Source: Candidatus Moraniibacteriota bacterium (lineage in GTDB: Bacteria; Patescibacteriota; Minisyncoccia; Moranbacterales; UBA1568). From it: 64,000 nucleotides of DNA. The notes under the pieces are model-generated. The model was given only the letters and a program-made list of their open reading frames with translations, searched no databases and was not told where the DNA came from. The stretch covers positions 537 through 64,536 of the forward strand of contig JBPOIB010000006.1 of the NCBI GenBank assembly GCA_052034935.1, given 5' to 3'. Position numbers and translations under genes: made by a program. Below, in pieces: positions 36,154-61,684 of this stretch (positions within the stretch are counted from its first letter, which is position 1; the number at the start of each line of letters is the position of its first letter).

Positions 36154-36351
36154 CTTGACCCCGTTAGCAATGAAAGGTTTCTGGGAATTAAAAAGCATCA
36201 CCTCCTTATCCTGTTTTGTGGCTTGATTTAAAGAAAAAAGTGTTAAAATATATTTCTCACGGGGTTTGACGAATCGTCCGTTTCAGGCTACAAAAGGAAG
36301 GCTTCACGCTCGTTCCGCCAGCCGGCGGATCAGTGGATAGAAATATAGTAT

Positions 36352-36424
36352 GCGCTCGTAGCTCAGTGGATAGAGTACCTGGCTTCGAACCAGAGGGTCG
36401 GGGGTTCGATTCCCTCCGAGCGCA
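36352..36424 (+). tRNA. tRNA-Arg (anticodon TCG).
   Basis: Acceptor GCGCTCG, anticodon stem-loop CCTGG-CTTCGAA-CCAGA, T-arm GGGGGTTCGATTCCCTC. CCA not encoded. Confidence 0.8.
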
Positions 36425-36604
36425 CAAGTGAATGAAATGAACGCGGGTGTTCGGAGCAAGCCGGCTGCCTGGCTTGCGAAGGGATGAGAAAGGCGGAACG
36501 CTGTTTCGCAAGCATGCGAAACCGTGAGCTGGGGGCGCAGAAATTCATGAGCGACGGCGAGTGAATTATCCGTGGCCGATTCCCTCCGAGCGCACAAGTG
36601 ATAC
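36425..36604 (+). repeat. tRNA-linked conserved ~150-nt element. It ends with a direct duplicate of the last ~24 nt of tRNA-Arg(TCG) (GATTCCCTCCGAGCGCACAAGTGA).
   Basis: The same 24-mer appears twice, at 36405..36428 and 36581..36604. The spacer is homologous to the one downstream of tRNA-Arg(GCG). It contains a GCAAGCC...GGCTTGC hairpin and a TTTCGCAagcaTGCGAAA palindrome. Confidence 0.5.
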
Positions 36605-36616
36605 AACCAAAAGACT

Positions 36617-36706
36617 GGAGGAGTGGCCGAGCGGTTGAAGGCAACAGTCTTGAAAACTGTCGTACCAGAAATGGTATCGTGAGTTCGAATCTCACCTCCT
36701 CCGCCA
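36617..36706 (+). tRNA. tRNA-Ser (anticodon TGA), with long variable arm and encoded CCA.
   Basis: Acceptor GGAGGAG, anticodon loop CTTGAAA, T-arm GTGAGTTCGAATCTCAC, then CTCCTCC-G-CCA. Confidence 0.85.
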
Positions 36707-36810
36707 ATCATAAAAAGAGCTGCCCTTGCGCGGTTCTTTTTTATTTAATCCGACTTGAGCACTCAGAAATAATCCAAAGTTTATGGTATAGTGAGAAAAA
36801 AGGAATCTCT

Positions 36811-37357: not shown

Positions 37358-37430
37358 GCGCTCGTAGCTCAGTGGATAGAGCATCTGGTTGCGGTCCAGA
37401 GGGTCGCAGGTTCGATTCCTGCCGAGCGCA
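37358..37430 (+). tRNA. tRNA-Arg (anticodon GCG, unusual for bacteria).
   Basis: Acceptor GCGCTCG, anticodon stem-loop TCTGG-TTGCGGT-CCAGA, T-arm GCAGGTTCGATTCCTGC. CCA not encoded. Confidence 0.75.
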
Positions 37431-37585
37431 CATCGGAGCAAGCCAACTGTTTGGCTTGCGTCAGGAGTCGAAAGGCGGAGTGATGCACGAGTTTGCGAAG
37501 CAAGGCGAGTGCCACGAGCCGGGGTCGAGAGAAATTTCCGTCAGGGAATTTACTCGTGACCGATTCCTGCCGAGCGCACACGTGC
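37431..37585 (+). repeat. Second copy of the tRNA-linked element. It ends with a duplicate of the 3' end of tRNA-Arg(GCG) (GATTCCTGCCGAGCGCACA).
   Basis: The 19-mer appears at 37411..37429 and 37562..37580. The spacer shares blocks with 36425..36580 (TCGGAGCAAGCC, GGCTTGCG, GAAAGGCGGA, AGAAATT). Confidence 0.5.
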
Positions 37586-37597
37586 GATTGTCGAACT

Positions 37598-37669
37598 GTC
37601 CTCGTCGTATAATGGATAAGACATCGCCCTCCGAAGGCGGAAATGCAGGTTCGATTCCTGCCGAGGACA
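37598..37669 (+). tRNA. tRNA-Arg (anticodon CCG).
   Basis: Acceptor GTCCTCG, anticodon loop CTCCGAA, T-arm GCAGGTTCGATTCCTGC. Confidence 0.8.
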
Positions 37670-37846
37670 CAACCATGCAGACCTCAGGTCTGCTATACCA
37701 AGAAAATCTTCCTAAAAAATGAATGAAACGTCCCTTGACTGAGGCGTTTTTTTCGTATATAGTGATGCCGCACGTCACCCGATGACGGAGCTGGCTCTTT
37801 ACAAAAAGAATACTTTTACCAACCCTCCGATAGAAGGAGACCGACA

Positions 37847-59091: not shown

Positions 59092-60110
59092 TGGCAATCG
59101 ACATGTTCAAAGGGATGTTCAAGGAGATCAGTGTTCTGGAGATCCTGAACTTGTTCCAGATGTCCAGTATGAAAGGGCTGATGGAAAAGATCGGCATCGG
59201 CGGCAAGAGAAGTGTCAGCAATGATCCTTCAGCCGATGCAAGCACTACCGCCAACGAAGGCGGCAAGGGCAACATCGACGAGCACAATGCGCTCATCGCC
59301 ATGGCCGAAGCCCATTTTGCCGGCAGCGGTGCTCCGGCGAAACTCACGATCACCCGTAGCTGCTTCAGGAAACTCATGGCTATCTTCAAGCTCCTCCGCG
59401 AACAAGGCAAGAGCGGCGGGGCGGAGAAACTGATGCATATCATCGGCCATGAGAGCCACTTGCAGGGTACGGCCGTCAGCCAACGGACCAGCGGTCCCAA
59501 GGGTCAAAAGCCCGAGGGAGAAGCGCCGGCTCCGAGGATTGACATCCACAACGTGCGGGAACGTACGAACCCGGCGGGACAACTCATCATCCGTTTCCTC
59601 ACCGACATCGAGCCCCAAGAAGCCGTCGACCTCCTCACGGCCGCGTCCATCACGGACAACGGCAAGGACAAGACGGCGGCGGCGGCAAAGGCGGCGAAAG
59701 AAAAACTTGATGAAGGCTGGCAAGCCATCGCGAAGTGGTGGTATGACGGGAATCGCGACCTGCAGATCCACAGTGCCTGGGCCAGAATCGTCCTCGCTGA
59801 CGACAAGGCTATGGAACGGATCCTCAAAAGCGACAGAGCTCTCGAACTCTGGAACTCGTTCCAACTCGAGAGCAATGACCCCGTACGGGCCCGACGCTAC
59901 ATCGAACAGCTTGAAGGCTACATCTGGGAACAGGTCAATGCCCATCAAGACGCCTCGACCGAAGAACCGAAGCAAGTTCCGACATCTTCGCCCAGTCGCT
60001 TCCAATGGCTGCCGCGCAAGGTACCGTGGATGTTCATCGTCTGGGGTACCGCCGGTTTCTTCGTCCTCCTCACCATCCTGACTCAACACCTCAAGTCCCT
60101 CGGGAACTGA
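59092..60110 (+). CDS. Hypothetical protein with a C-terminal TM anchor, high GC.
   Basis: AAGGAGATCAATC lies upstream of the ATG (MAIDMF). Single C-terminal hydrophobic helix WMFIVWGTAGFFVLLTIL. No recognisable domain. Confidence 0.5.
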
Positions 60111-60136
60111 GGGGGCAACAACTTCAAGGAGATTCC

Positions 60137-61684
60137 ATGATTCAGCAACAGAACCCCCAAACCTCGCTCCTGCGAGCAGTGGGGCCGACACTCCGGGTCA
60201 ACTGGTTCGCCAGAGCCTGGGGCGGATCGACCGGGCTGCGTACCGCCCTCTGGTACGTTTTCGGCGGCCTCATCGCCCTCATCGCCATCGCGGTGTGGGC
60301 AAAGACGATGGGCTGGACAGCCATACCCTGGACCATCGGCGGCGGAGCACTCATCGCGGCCATCGTGATGGGGACGCCGTTCGCTCTCGGAGCCACTCCC
60401 CCGATCTGGTTCGCGGGGTTCATCCGGCATCAAGCCGGTGGAGACCCCTGGCTCTCGGCGGAAGATGGCGTCACGGGAGGCAATGACTATGTGAAGGGAC
60501 TGTGGGGGTTCTTCAAGAGCCTCCTCTTCTACACCCCGCTGGTTTTCTTCGGTATCGGCTTCTTCCGGATCGAAGGCAACCTGCTCGGCGTCATCCCCTT
60601 CCTCGGTGTTTCGCTGGCGCTCATCATCCACTACGCCGGCACGCAGGGCACGTTCTTCCGCAATCTGGTGGTGCTCATCTATACGGGCATCATCCTGTGG
60701 ATCCTCGGGACCTGGATTCCCCCGGTCGCCGAGCGGCAGCAGCAATTCACTCACTGGTGGACGCTGAACGTGTCGCGCAATGCGGCCGACCAAGCCAGCG
60801 ACGAGCAGAACGCCGACCAGCACGCCAAGAACGTGCTGGACGCCGACAACTGCTTCGCTGGCCTGAAGAAGATGGTCCAGCCCACCCAGGAAGACAAGGA
60901 CCGCTGTGAAGCGCTCCGGAAGTCCGTCGGCAGTTACGTCTACAAGAACGCTGCCGAACAACAGCGGGCCGAAGCCAATGCGAGGCTGCGCCAAGCGCGC
61001 GTCGACGCAGCGGCCGCCTGCTGGAAGGGAATCACTGGTAGCTCCAAGCCGGAAGCGATCGCCCAGTGCGAAGCGCTCGAAAAGGAGATCGACCAGCCTC
61101 CGGTCACAGCGACACCGTCTGCTCCCCCGCCCCCACAAGGGACGACGGGTGCCGGTGGAACCACCCCTACGACCACGACCACCAGCAGCGAAGGGCCTTG
61201 GAACTGCGAAAAGACGTACCGGGAACTCGAGTTCGATCCGCGCCTGAAAGCAGGCCGAGTCGACCTCGAACCCCTCCCTCCGGGAAGGTACGAGATCACC
61301 GTCACCGGCAAGCGGCAACAGCCCTTCTACGTGATGAACAGCGTCGGCCGAGCCGAGCATGCTGCAACGTGTCTGAGCGACCCCGAGGGCAACCTCGAAG
61401 GCTGCACGGACCCACGCGGCACGCCGATCGACTGGAAAGCCGATCCGGCGAAGCTCGCCCATTGGCCCGGTGAGGGCAGACTGCCCGACCCGAGCCGGGC
61501 TCATGGCACCGTGATGGCGCATATCTGGGGACACATCATCCCCGTCGGAAGCGCCGTTCGCATCGGTACATCGGAAGAGCGCCCAATCGCACTCGACCTG
61601 AACGCCGATCGCTACCCGCTGAACTGGAGCGGCACCGGAGCATTCGCTGTGAAGATCAAGCAATGTGAGGCGACACGCACCTAA
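60137..61684 (+). CDS. Hypothetical polytopic membrane protein (about 6 TM) with a C-terminal Cys-containing extracytoplasmic domain, high GC.
   Basis: AAGGAGATTCC lies upstream of the ATG (MIQQQN). Hydrophobic helices through residue ~230. Pro/Thr/Gly linker (PPPPQGTTGAGGTTPTTTTT). Confidence 0.5.
   Translation: MIQQQNPQTSLLRAVGPTLRVNWFARAWGGSTGLRTALWYVFGGLIALIAIAVWAKTMGWTAIPWTIGGGALIAAIVMGTPFALGATPPIWFAGFIRHQAGGDPWLSAEDGVTGGNDYVKGLWGFFKSLLFYTPLVFFGIGFFRIEGNLLGVIPFLGVSLALIIHYAGTQGTFFRNLVVLIYTGIILWILGTWIPPVAERQQQFTHWWTLNVSRNAADQASDEQNADQHAKNVLDADNCFAGLKKMVQPTQEDKDRCEALRKSVGSYVYKNAAEQQRAEANARLRQARVDAAAACWKGITGSSKPEAIAQCEALEKEIDQPPVTATPSAPPPPQGTTGAGGTTPTTTTTSSEGPWNCEKTYRELEFDPRLKAGRVDLEPLPPGRYEITVTGKRQQPFYVMNSVGRAEHAATCLSDPEGNLEGCTDPRGTPIDWKADPAKLAHWPGEGRLPDPSRAHGTVMAHIWGHIIPVGSAVRIGTSEERPIALDLNADRYPLNWSGTGAFAVKIKQCEATRT

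Follow-up and report, generated by a model that had tools for sequence, protein, structure and literature searches.

A covarying RNA family located 3′ of tRNA and tmRNA genes and bounded by duplicated tRNA 3′ ends: a candidate RNA-guided mobile element of Patescibacteria and Elusimicrobia

R2-type non-LTR retrotransposons are eukaryotic, target the 28S rDNA and possess an HDV-like ribozyme and a known reverse transcriptase/endonuclease. Together with their non-autonomous SIDE derivatives, they resemble the element presented here in many traits: they insert into one conserved RNA gene, they have no promoter of their own and are co-transcribed with the host RNA gene and cut from the joint transcript, they move by way of a structured RNA, the 3′ junction is precise and the 5′ junction variable, and both truncated copies and short ORF-less parasites are found. 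Unlike R2, the element has a bacterial host, no known reverse transcriptase, an explicit antisense guide and a target duplication of 18–29 nt anchored at C56. Mobile group II introns also carry complements of the insertion site in their RNA (EBS/IBS logic), and retargeting accompanies changes in those complementary sequences; in contrast to them, the element has no domain V/VI, splicing signature or intron-encoded protein, is only ~150 nt long, and duplicates its target, whereas group II introns interrupt theirs. Concerning the elements that integrases mobilise at tRNA and tmRNA genes, and those of their derivatives that lack an integrase (CIMEs and tycheposon satellites), the common traits are the T-loop-to-3′-end repeats at tRNA and tmRNA genes, the intact tRNA, the tandem arrays and the precisely empty sites. 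These have a fixed attP for one tRNA and no structured-RNA core, whereas the element is a single covarying RNA core family found at at least 14 tRNA species, with locally exact repeats and no integrase found.

Casposons duplicate 14–15 bp of their target and CRISPR spacer integration the whole repeat; some casposons are located at the 3′ ends of tRNA genes. As in the element, integration is staggered and duplicates a long target, and new units are added at the proximal copy, which leads to arrays. Casposons are 8–20 kb long and contain terminal inverted repeats, Cas1 and PolB; the element differs by having neither terminal inverted repeats nor genes, a variable duplication length and an RNA fold. 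The IS110 bridge/seek RNA and the TnpB/IscB omega RNA are likewise structured RNAs of ~150–180 nt, part of which matches the flanking target. Bridge and omega RNAs have a recombinase or nuclease gene in the same element and no 20-nt target duplication, and their guides are loop-borne (IS110) or a free 3′/5′ tail (omega RNA), whereas the guide of the element is bipartite, antisense and closed by the duplicated target, with no protein gene linked to it. Finally, in tmRNA and tRNA-like RNAs the 5′ and 3′ ends pair as the acceptor/T-arm-like helix of a real tRNA with the bulk of the molecule in between, as in the element; unlike tmRNA, the element contains no T-loop, D-loop or reading frame, and its left guide often pairs with the discriminator and CCA.

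The window, i.e. the whole stretch of 64,000 nt that was analysed, from a Moraniibacteriota genome, contains the element at only two of its 12 tRNAs. The features of the first locus are the following (all on the + strand):

36227..36254, +: promoter-like site upstream of the tRNA-Arg(TCG)/element/tRNA-Ser unit (weak; 9/12 matches in a consensus scan)
36352..36425, +: tRNA-Arg(TCG), the intact target gene and proximal host of the element (ARAGORN; Rfam tRNA model, 67.9 bits)
36407..36431, +: proximal 25-nt direct repeat, from C56 of the tRNA to the discriminator plus CAAGTGA
36432..36455, +: 5′ arm and left guide (folds, family alignment, specificity test)
36456..36477, +: P2 hairpin GCAAGCC-GGCTGCCT-GGCTTGC, between the two guide halves
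36478..36488, +: right guide GAAGGGATGAG, pairing partner of the T-loop and the 3′ strand of the T-stem in the repeat (helix 2 of the covariation analysis; own- versus other-tRNA test)
36488..36576, +: conserved RNA core (covariance model match, covariation, consensus)
36577..36601, +: distal 25-nt repeat copy (target duplication)
36617..36706, +: tRNA-Ser(TGA), downstream member of the tRNA-Arg/element/tRNA-Ser transcription unit (ARAGORN, Rfam)
36712..36741, +: intrinsic terminator closing this unit

The exact repeat of this locus is CGATTCCCTCCGAGCGCACAAGTGA (25 nt; 36407–36431 and 36577–36601); its copies start 170 nt apart and enclose an insert of 145 nt, and the distal copy is separated from the tRNA-Ser by 15 nt. 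An exact duplicate of the tRNA-Arg(TCG) 3′ end had been reported in the initial annotation and is real, as is the repeat at tRNA-Arg(GCG) (20 nt). Its measurements are corrected by those given here: the 24-mer it placed at 36581..36604 is found 3 nt further upstream (36578–36601), and its spacing of ~176 nt and its gap of 12 nt to the tRNA-Ser(TGA) were slightly off. For an exact 25-mer to occur again within 200 nt, the chance expectation is ~2e-13 (200 x 4^-25). The core consists, in this order, of the junction GAAAGGCGGA, P3 (36492–36530), a GAGCU-GGGG junction, P4, the P5 hairpin (36537–36574) and a 3′ terminal GUGGC. The GCAAGCC...GGCTTGC hairpin and the palindrome TTTCGCAAGCATGCGAAA that had been noticed earlier are both present, the former as P2 and the latter at the apex of P3 (36505–36522). 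The distal repeat closes the RNA by pairing with the left and right guides; TCGGAG of the left guide is complementary to CTCCGA of the tRNA 3′ strand. At this locus no terminator separates the element from the tRNA-Arg before it or from the tRNA that follows.

The comparison with the second locus (37358..37669), which had been proposed as a check, reveals a homologous insert in the same layout of tRNA, insert and tRNA-3′-end duplicate:

37358..37431, +: tRNA-Arg(GCG), host of the second element copy (ARAGORN, Rfam)
37413..37432, +: proximal 20-nt repeat CGATTCCTGCCGAGCGCACA
37433..37560, +: second element copy, homologous to the insert of the first locus (covariance model match 37416–37582, 119.3 bits with model R1; alignments)
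37561..37580, +: distal 20-nt repeat (exact repeat search; the orthologous site of the relative L069 is empty)
37598..37670, +: tRNA-Arg(CCG), downstream member of the second unit (ARAGORN, Rfam)

The 5′ arm and the greater part of the left guide are missing from this copy; P2 (37438–37459), the right guide (37460–37470), GAAAGGCGG (37470–37478) and GUGAC (37556–37560) are present. Both copies of the window show the traits of the family, i.e. a same-strand position directly 3′ of a tRNA, an antisense guide in two parts with P2 between them, the core and the repeat start at C56.

Pattern scans of GTDB species genomes and JGI metagenomes yielded 20 and 28 real loci, respectively, and the covariance model of the family (R1), which scores real loci at 58–160 bits (141.9 bits at the first locus of the window, 36434–36598), finds more than 50 copies in Patescibacteria and Elusimicrobia. 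All copies are located directly 3′ of a tRNA or tmRNA gene and on the strand of that gene. The hosts comprise at least 14 tRNA species as well as tmRNA; among them are Val, Arg (TCG/GCG/CCG), Lys, Glu, Gln, Thr, Phe, Gly, Ser, Tyr, Pro and Met. The element is ORF-less and about 130–170 nt long, with a core of roughly 110 nt defined by GAAAGGCGGA...GAGCCGGGG...GUGAC. The absence of a conserved ORF, already pointed out in the initial annotation, follows from the lengths of the variable hairpins, which differ among members by non-multiples of three. Rfam 15 covariance models, among them those of self-cleaving ribozymes, T-box, tmRNA, Y RNA and omega RNA, at permissive thresholds (E <= 10 or E <= 5) do not match the element in the window and six other loci, where the tRNA and tmRNA genes are the only matches. 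A full-text literature search found no description of the element; the nearest paper (PMC13011429) is on group I introns of patescibacterial tRNAs. The family is thus apparently undescribed.

Looking at the element from 5′ to 3′, its parts are a 5′ arm (short, and in some copies a palindromic terminator-like hairpin), the left guide, P2, the right guide, and the core (GAAAGGCGGA, P3, GAGCCGGGG, P4/P5, GUGAC). Directly behind it follows the duplicate of the tRNA 3′ end, which extends from C56 to a point 0–14 nt beyond the tRNA. The left guide is complementary to the acceptor 3′ strand, and the right guide to the T-stem 3′ strand and the T-loop. The fold is common to the family: 94.8% of the cells are paired, versus 27–41% when the partners are slid, and 27 of the 33 pairs show compensatory changes on both sides, a number which none of 500 shuffles reached. 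Since G:U pairs are abundant, the fold fits the tRNA strand only. P2 is paired in 100% of 45 sequences, although its seeming invariance, like that of GAAAGGCGG, is partly an artefact of the search pattern; compensatory variants of P2 exist in copies outside the search-pattern selection. This bears out the proposal that the insert could be a structured RNA re-using the tRNA 3′ arm: its 5′ part pairs with the duplicated 3′ end within a covarying fold.

The guides are specific to their own tRNA. For the right guide the median of the longest pairing run is 9 with the own tRNA versus 6 with other tRNAs (p = 2e-16), and for the left guide 6 versus 4 (p = 4e-7). In the tmRNA copies the left guide has an A, and not a G, opposite U70; it is therefore a true antisense, and an origin by tRNA gene duplication, with the left guide copied from the tRNA 5′ strand, is rejected. 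The frequent pairing of the left guide with the discriminator and CCA also speaks against such a copy. The left guide of some insertions that look young (L039, L007) is weak or missing, so guidance may rest mostly on the semi-universal T-loop. A kissing interaction between the P2 and P3 loops is rejected: there is no covariation, and the P2 loops differ in Elusimicrobia while the P3 loop is constant.

Concerning the boundaries, the repeat starts exactly at C56 of the T-loop in at least 24 loci, so that this boundary is fixed, and the distal repeat is preceded by a constant GUGAC|C56 junction. The position of the right end is variable (−10 to +14, counted from the end of the tRNA), giving a target duplication of 18–29 nt or longer. 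Repeats which extend beyond CCA into the genomic trailer are found in L053, L002 and the window, and template switching on a mature tRNA is therefore rejected as their source.

The two loci of the window are part of a conserved synteny (iPGM / Arg-TCG / Ser / hypothetical 160-aa protein / Arg-GCG / Arg-CCG / RecG), which allows filled and empty sites to be compared among close relatives. In L069 (88% amino acid identity) the first locus is filled and the second is empty, in L070 both are filled, and in L071 and L073 no copy is detectable by the model at either locus. The filled and empty forms of the second locus differ by the element plus the 20-nt repeat. The initial suggestion that a duplicated tRNA 3′ end around a short insert marks an insertion element thus agrees with the filled and precisely empty sites that the search in relatives provided, while a deletion remnant does not account for the same ~130–170-nt RNA at many tRNAs of two phyla. 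The difference between filled and empty sites could equally be explained by precise loss through recombination between the repeats.

Cores that are 87–92% identical are found at different tRNAs (Gly vs Val; Val vs Ser); their right guides are rewritten, and the repeat beside each of them equals the local tRNA exactly. In tandem arrays, the proximal unit is intact and the distal, older units are degenerate or truncated. Truncation at the 5′ end is seen in the second copy of the window, L019b, L005b/c and the L075 fragment, and at the 3′ end in two copies (L074b, L035). Based on seven Elusimicrobia tRNA-Val loci of the same synteny, the core is under purifying selection: none of the junction nucleotides varies and changes in the stems are compensated, while the flanking spacer drifts and the acceptor half of the distal repeat decays.

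No proteins apart from syntenic ones are shared by the neighbourhoods of about 60 loci in an all-against-all ORF clustering. Among the ~46 ORFs of the window there is no reverse transcriptase, integrase, transposase or Cas1, and no Phage_integrase or recombinase domain; a reverse transcriptase partner was found in neither the window nor the loci. No gene is linked to the element. Its position inside tRNA operons has the geometry of co-transcription. Across the family, terminators are often found between the tRNA and the element, and where such a palindromic terminator is present, expression of the element needs read-through.

We give about an even chance to the reading that the family is a non-autonomous, target-duplicating and probably RNA-guided mobile element, ORF-less, located 3′ of tRNA/tmRNA genes and co-transcribed with the tRNA. 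The element would be transcribed by read-through from the tRNA promoter and freed by tRNA-processing enzymes (RNase Z on the 5′ side, RNase P or Z on the 3′ side). It would spread by target-duplicating insertion: one strand would be opened precisely at T-loop position 55/56, where the conserved GUGAC 3′ end would be joined, and the other at a variable point just past the tRNA, the geometry of target-primed reverse transcription or of a staggered-cut integrase. Base pairing of the RNA guides would select the tRNA gene, and the catalytic partner would presumably be supplied in trans. The duplication of variable length, the precise 3′ junction and the variable or truncated 5′ ends are those of a non-LTR/SINE-like retroelement using target-primed reverse transcription. 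We infer reverse transcription, or any other chemistry, purely from such traits, and neither the window nor the loci yielded an enzyme for it. Group II introns, one obvious source of a reverse transcriptase, are reported to be missing from Patescibacteria (PMC13011429).

More tentatively, and as a possibility rather than an expectation, the family may be a minimal protein-less RNA-guided mobile element, whose core pairs with the T-arm/acceptor 3′ strand of the tRNA gene, joins GUGAC at 55/56 and is copied into DNA behind the tRNA. The helper would be a host or trans-encoded polymerase or integrase, or possibly the own chemistry of the element, and expression and processing would depend entirely on the tRNA promoter and RNase Z/P. 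If the protein-less reading is true, ultra-small bacteria would contain a programmable retroelement or integrator of a new class, which homes to tRNAs.

If the mobile-element reading is true, the bacteria whose genomes are the smallest known, and in which each retained 150 nt calls for explanation, would possess a new class of structured RNA as well as a mobile element of a new type. A parasite or domesticated RNA would live on the tRNA expression and processing machinery and leave the tRNA unharmed by duplicating its 3′ end. Should an RNA indeed guide the targeting, the two-part guide with its constant hairpin would interest genome engineers as a compact address system that is reprogrammed in nature. 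In CPR and Elusimicrobia genomes, att-site and genomic-island finders as well as tRNA operon annotation will be misled by the duplicated tRNA 3′ ends and the ~150-nt spacers. The family also offers a testable handle (RNA-seq ends, filled/empty alleles) on the mobile-element biology of uncultivated lineages.

It is rather unlikely, in our judgement, that the element is instead a small RNA maintained by the host, i.e. a domesticated or native tRNA-linked RNA that is not actively mobile. Such an RNA could take two forms. In the first it pairs with the duplicated 3′ end as an acceptor/T-arm mimic: the left guide takes the place of the acceptor 5′ strand, P2 that of the D and anticodon arms and the right guide that of the T-stem 5′ strand, and the core is located in the T-loop. 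In the second the guides pair, in cis or in trans, with the 3′ strand of the real tRNA. The RNA would have a role in tRNA maturation, sensing or sequestration, and would have spread by duplication and gene conversion. The seven syntenic tRNA-Val loci of Elusimicrobia, with their invariant junction, compensated stems and drifting spacer and distal acceptor half, resemble an RNA kept by the host more than an element that is purely selfish. The left guide still matches the genuine tRNA where the distal acceptor half has decayed (L025, L023), and in L009 it covaries with a change in the acceptor stem; the place of the element inside tRNA operons is one of co-transcription, and minimum-free-energy folds show an alternative pairing of four segments (tRNA with guide or guide with distal copy). 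Against a host function, the element is found on only two of the 12 tRNAs of the window, close relatives lack it at the same sites without a visible replacement, many copies are truncated or degenerate or form tandem arrays, and no associated gene points to a pathway. Also, even a host RNA would require some mechanism of insertion to account for the exact C56-bounded target duplications at 14 or more tRNA species.

Less likely still is a miniature integrative element (attL/attR, CIME-like), as envisaged in the initial annotation, in which a tyrosine integrase of the T-loop sublocation class would act from elsewhere, the repeats would be att cores and the RNA would be cargo. T-loop-to-3′-end identity blocks and tmRNA targets are reportedly typical of integrase att sites, and the repeat does extend from C56 to or past the tRNA 3′ end, with tmRNA among the targets; precisely empty sites and tandem accretion also agree with integration. 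However, conservative recombination would graft the tRNA 3′ end of the element itself onto the host gene. An exact repeat of the local tRNA at each site is automatic with a target-duplicating mechanism, but not with an attP-bearing element, and here near-identical cores at different tRNA species (Gly vs Val, Val vs Ser) each have an exact local copy, which is not the pattern of one attP for one tRNA. The constant GUGAC before the distal repeat forms no T-stem-like inverted repeat, the right repeat boundary is variable, and the insert covaries in the manner of an RNA with G:U pairs and not in that of conserved protein-binding arms. No integrase is found in the window or the ~60 loci, and a circle of ~150 bp would be an implausible recombination substrate. 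Of the att proposal, the repeat from T-loop to 3′ end is thus retained, and the local copies at at least 14 tRNA species and the missing integrase speak against the remainder.

We regard as very improbable a T-loop intron or alternative 3′ half, by which the tRNA would consist of nucleotides 1–55 plus the distal copy after removal of ~170 nt. In whole-unit minimum-free-energy folds the distal copy is indeed the partner of the tRNA 5′ acceptor strand, and tRNA introns are plentiful in Patescibacteria, where group I introns are located in the tRNA anticodon loops (PMC13011429). However, the proximal tRNA is always intact and the distal copy is decayed or interrupted in many loci, terminators often separate the tRNA from the element, the spliced product would be a tRNA which is already encoded, and there is no group I or group II signature in Rfam (E <= 10 or E <= 5), so both intron classes are rejected. 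A chance repeat or lineage-specific deletion scar without biological coherence, which only the small insert size favours, is practically dismissed by the chance expectation of the repeat, the second homologous locus in the window and the more than 50 homologous covarying copies in two phyla.

Other identities were also rejected. A MITE (DDE-transposon derivative), with its terminal inverted repeats and short target duplication of constant length, does not agree with the lack of an inverted repeat joining the element ends, or with a duplication of 18–29 nt or longer with a variable right end. By hand comparison, none of the hammerhead, hairpin-ribozyme, HDV, group II domain V, RNase P P4 and T-box motifs fits. 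A TnpB-like omega RNA whose guide is the distal copy would be directed at the proximal tRNA gene, which is intact, and TnpB is absent. Phage or plasmid origin is not supported: two patterns gave 0 real matches to the element in IMG/VR, and blastn left it unmatched in phage and plasmid collections. A T-box or other cis-regulatory leader is rejected, as no functionally linked gene (e.g. an aminoacyl-tRNA synthetase) is located downstream.

As to minor sequence motifs, the GAUGAG...GAAA of the first locus is not conserved across the family, and GAGCC is the 3′ strand of P3 and not the start of a domain-V-like hairpin. The features found downstream of the element are tRNAs, terminators or unrelated genes; in Elusimicrobia the recurrent downstream gene encodes an OPT transporter.

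Both copies of the element in the window follow a tRNA-Arg gene, carry an insert that can be aligned between them and share one layout: tRNA, insert, then a duplicate of the tRNA 3′ end.

Features of the two copies in the window
36352-36425: tRNA-Arg(TCG), host of locus 1 (ARAGORN and Rfam tRNA model)
36407-36431: proximal copy of the locus 1 direct repeat, CGATTCCCTCCGAGCGCACAAGTGA, 25 nt
36456-36477: hairpin (P2) of locus 1
36505-36522: palindrome of locus 1
36577-36601: distal copy of CGATTCCCTCCGAGCGCACAAGTGA, exact match
36617-36706: tRNA-Ser(TGA) (ARAGORN and Rfam tRNA model)
37358-37431: tRNA-Arg(GCG), host of locus 2
37413-37432: proximal copy of the 20-nt locus 2 repeat
37561-37580: distal copy of the locus 2 repeat

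The locus 1 repeat runs from T-loop position C56 to the discriminator and continues with CAAGTGA. The two copies start 170 nt apart, the distal one lies 15 nt before tRNA-Ser, and an exact 25-nt repeat within 200 nt has a chance expectation of about 2e-13. The exact duplicate of the tRNA-Arg(TCG) 3′ end reported in the initial annotation is present, although its position (36581-36604) was off by 3 nt. The hairpin and the palindrome described in the insert were both recovered. The element contains no ORF, as had been proposed: across the family, hairpins differ in length by numbers that are not multiples of three. The locus 2 element lacks the 5′ arm present in two relatives (L021 and L070).

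We searched for relatives with the pattern GCAAGCC-N6-10-GGCTTGC-N8-12-GAAAGGCGG. It gave 23 loci in GTDB species genomes, 20 of them real, and 31 in JGI metagenomes (28 real). In all real loci with sufficient flank, the motif comes directly after a tRNA or tmRNA gene and lies on that gene's strand. The host tRNAs are those for Val (TAC/CAC/GAC), Arg (TCG/GCG/CCG), Gly (TCC/GCC), Lys, Glu, Gln, Thr, Phe, Ser, Tyr, Pro and Met. The element is found in Elusimicrobia and in Patescibacteria (Moranii-, Nomura-, Vogel- and Paceibacterota, Saccharibacteria). In a 4.7-kb contig labelled Bdellovibrionales (L004, CAYYET010000073.1), the tRNA-Arg(TCG) and the element core show 94% identity to a Moraniibacteriota copy (L008); this is probably CPR sequence that was mis-binned, and not a sign that the element occurs in Bdellovibrionota. 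No match to the element was found in Rfam 15, IMG/VR or the phage and plasmid collections, and literature searches gave no description of it.

Concerning the fold, RNAalifold predicted 33 pairs from 19 copies, 19 of the 33 with compensatory changes, and the covariance model scores the window copies at 141.9 bits (locus 1) and 119.3 bits (locus 2). In an alignment of 45 copies, whose fitting to the covariance model somewhat inflates the pairing figures, 94.8% of the pair cells are standard pairs vs 27-41% with the partners slid, both-sided changes occur in 27 of the 33 pairs, and the observed values are reached by none of 500 shuffles. G:U pairs are frequent (22/45 at one position) and are compatible with the tRNA strand only. 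The element encodes a structured RNA on the tRNA strand, and its copies almost certainly constitute a real RNA family. The consensus begins with the left guide and A, P2 and G, the right guide, GAAAGGCGGA and P3, whose internal loop is GGA/GA and whose apex varies in length (15-140 nt); these are followed by GAGCCGGGG, P4/P5 with an apex that is often GAGCGACGGCGAG, GUGAC and the repeat from C56. Part of the invariance of P2 and GAAAGGCGG is due to ascertainment, since the search pattern required both. Copies found by proximity or synteny alone contain compensated P2 stems (GCGGGAC/GUCCCGC, AUGGGCC/GGCCCAU, GUGAGCC/GGCUCAC, GUAUACC/GGUAUGC) and also a flipped P3. A divergent subfamily (L074 4580-4800, L075 3330-3390) has GGACGUCGGA in place of GAAAGGCGGA, GUAUACC/GGUAUGC as P2, a 3′ end GAGGGA|GAUUCC and a 29-nt repeat starting at G57, not C56; in L075 its fragments are nested behind a canonical copy.

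The segments flanking P2 are complementary to a single contiguous tRNA stretch. For the left guide this is the acceptor 3′ strand, often together with the discriminator and CCA; for the right guide it is the 3′ strand of the T-stem plus the T-loop's 3′ half. Both guides are tRNA-specific: the median longest pairing run is 9 with the own tRNA vs 6 with other tRNAs for the right guide (p = 2e-16), and 6 vs 4 for the left (p = 4e-7). Opposite U70, the left guide of tmRNA copies has an A, so it is antisense; this rules out that it is a copy of the tRNA 5′ strand. When folded as a single molecule, the RNA is closed by pairing of the guides with the distal repeat; in an alternative fold of the full unit the guides pair with the proximal copy. 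Many CPR copies have a palindromic terminator-like hairpin between the tRNA and the left guide, and at filled CPR sites the tRNA 3′ end, hairpin and left guide form a continuous palindrome of ~60-70 nt. This hairpin may be either native or element-borne. Native CPR tRNA terminators are long A-tract/T-tract palindromes directly after the tRNA (L005 1130-1790, minus strand; L019 7140-7720).

The element very probably originated by insertion and still undergoes it. The repeat starts exactly at C56 (following GGTT) in at least 24 loci, and the distal copy is preceded by a constant GUGAC or GUGGC; the repeat end ranges from decayed (-10) to +14 beyond the tRNA. Relatives were located via the neighbouring 160-aa protein, and they keep the order iPGM, Arg-TCG, Ser, hypothetical 160-aa protein, Arg-GCG, Arg-CCG, RecG.

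State of the sites in the relatives
L069 (88% aa identity): filled at locus 1; empty at locus 2, where the two tRNAs are 25 nt apart
L070: locus 1 and locus 2 both filled
L071: no copy detected by the model at either site; gaps of 72-104 nt
L073: no copy detected by the model at either site; gaps of 17-78 nt
L074: a copy following Arg-CCG
L075: a copy following Arg-GCG, and nested fragments

At locus 2 the element together with the 20-nt repeat accounts for the difference between filled and empty forms. Arg-GCG sites are also empty in two more distant CPR genomes (L019, L005). Cores group by host and tRNA, yet close cores are also found at different tRNAs (Gly-GCC vs Val-GAC 92% identity, Val vs Ser 87%). 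In the Gly/Val pair the identity block starts at P2 and reaches the 3′ end; 5/11 nt of the right guide have been rewritten, and the 5′ arm is unrelated. Tandem units are present in L024, L012 and L031; in L005, L019 and L075 an intact proximal unit is followed by degenerate, mostly 5′-truncated units.

After tRNA-Arg(GCG) in L076 (3186-3305), 53 nt are perfectly repeated in tandem (2.3 copies, 100% identity), each unit consisting of the tRNA 3′ end (from GATTCC on) and a further 35 nt (TAAGGTTCCCCGCCATAGGCGGACCAGCAGACTGG). The 35-nt part resembles an internally deleted element (AGGCGGACC...CAGCAG), and the repeat may be an extreme mini-derivative using the T-loop repeat logic. L069 (3220-3320) has, after tRNA-Arg(CCG), a ~75-nt insert without model match and then a partial tRNA 3′-end copy (CTGCCGAGGACGC), probably a decayed or different element. 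The tRNA neighbourhoods of L070 and L072 are rearranged. L070 (3330-3530) has a tRNA-Arg(CCG) copy with a disrupted T-arm, then a second gene that is intact and differs in its acceptor stem. L072 (1857-2078, 3153-3706) contains a truncated tRNA-Ser fragment and gaps of 220 and 550 nt without model match. Judging from these two relatives, the lineage appears to have rearrangement hot spots at its tRNA 3′ regions.

Each known kind of element fails at least one defining feature. Unlike integrase elements, the element is not restricted to a single tRNA and has no integrase or protein-binding arms. It differs from MITEs in having no terminal inverted repeats and no short duplication of fixed length, and from casposons in having neither genes nor such inverted repeats; group I/II introns have a catalytic core and interrupt their host gene, features that are missing here. 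Omega and bridge RNAs have a linked nuclease or recombinase, also absent here, and, unlike the element, make no long duplication. SINE/SIDE-like elements are the best anatomical fit; no reverse transcriptase was found for the element. We therefore regard the element as a new kind and its RNA as a new class, judging from individual loci and from relatives sought by exact-pattern scans.

Under conservative attP x attB recombination every new host tRNA would receive the tRNA 3′ end carried by the element itself; the repeats seen, locally exact at many tRNA species, point to target duplication instead. We infer the insertion mechanism as a whole, any enzyme named for it being a candidate only. One break would be fixed at 55/56, where the constant 3′ end of the element would be joined, and the other would vary just beyond the tRNA. 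Target-primed reverse transcription, with R2 and its SIDE derivatives as nearest analogues, would match this break geometry, the truncated copies and the conserved sense-strand RNA; a Cas1-type staggered-cut integrase would produce the same pattern. The guides might choose the tRNA gene through base pairing, like EBS/IBS of group II introns, but an RNA-guided mechanism is a tentative and rather doubtful proposal. We hold the chances of the full statement, a mobile, guide-directed, trans-mobilised element, to be evenly balanced. Alternatively or in addition, the host may use the RNA as a tRNA-like or anti-tRNA molecule, as suggested by seven syntenic Elusimicrobia tRNA-Val loci: the core is under purifying selection while the acceptor half of the distal repeat decays, and the left guide follows the genuine tRNA, with a compensatory change in L009.

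Beyond local synteny, no protein family is shared among the loci; an OPT transporter gene is a recurrent neighbour in Elusimicrobia. None of the ~46 window ORFs is a reverse transcriptase, integrase, transposase, Cas1 or HUH enzyme. Both window copies sit within tRNA operons, with a promoter-like site upstream, a terminator after tRNA-Ser and none before or after the element, which must thus be transcribed with the tRNAs. Based on established tRNA processing, RNase Z and RNase P would release the element RNA.

Two further observations concern the tRNA genes. The usual bacterial tRNA-Arg anticodon is ACG, deaminated and read as ICG; here it is GCG (window 37358-37431, L019 3259-3331, L005 6080-6154, L069-L076), which hints that A34-to-I editing is absent in these Patescibacteria. 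A second, atypical tRNA-Lys(CTT) at 60791-60864 (minus strand), predicted by ARAGORN, lies within an opposite-strand 559-aa ORF (60005-61684) and may be a false positive.
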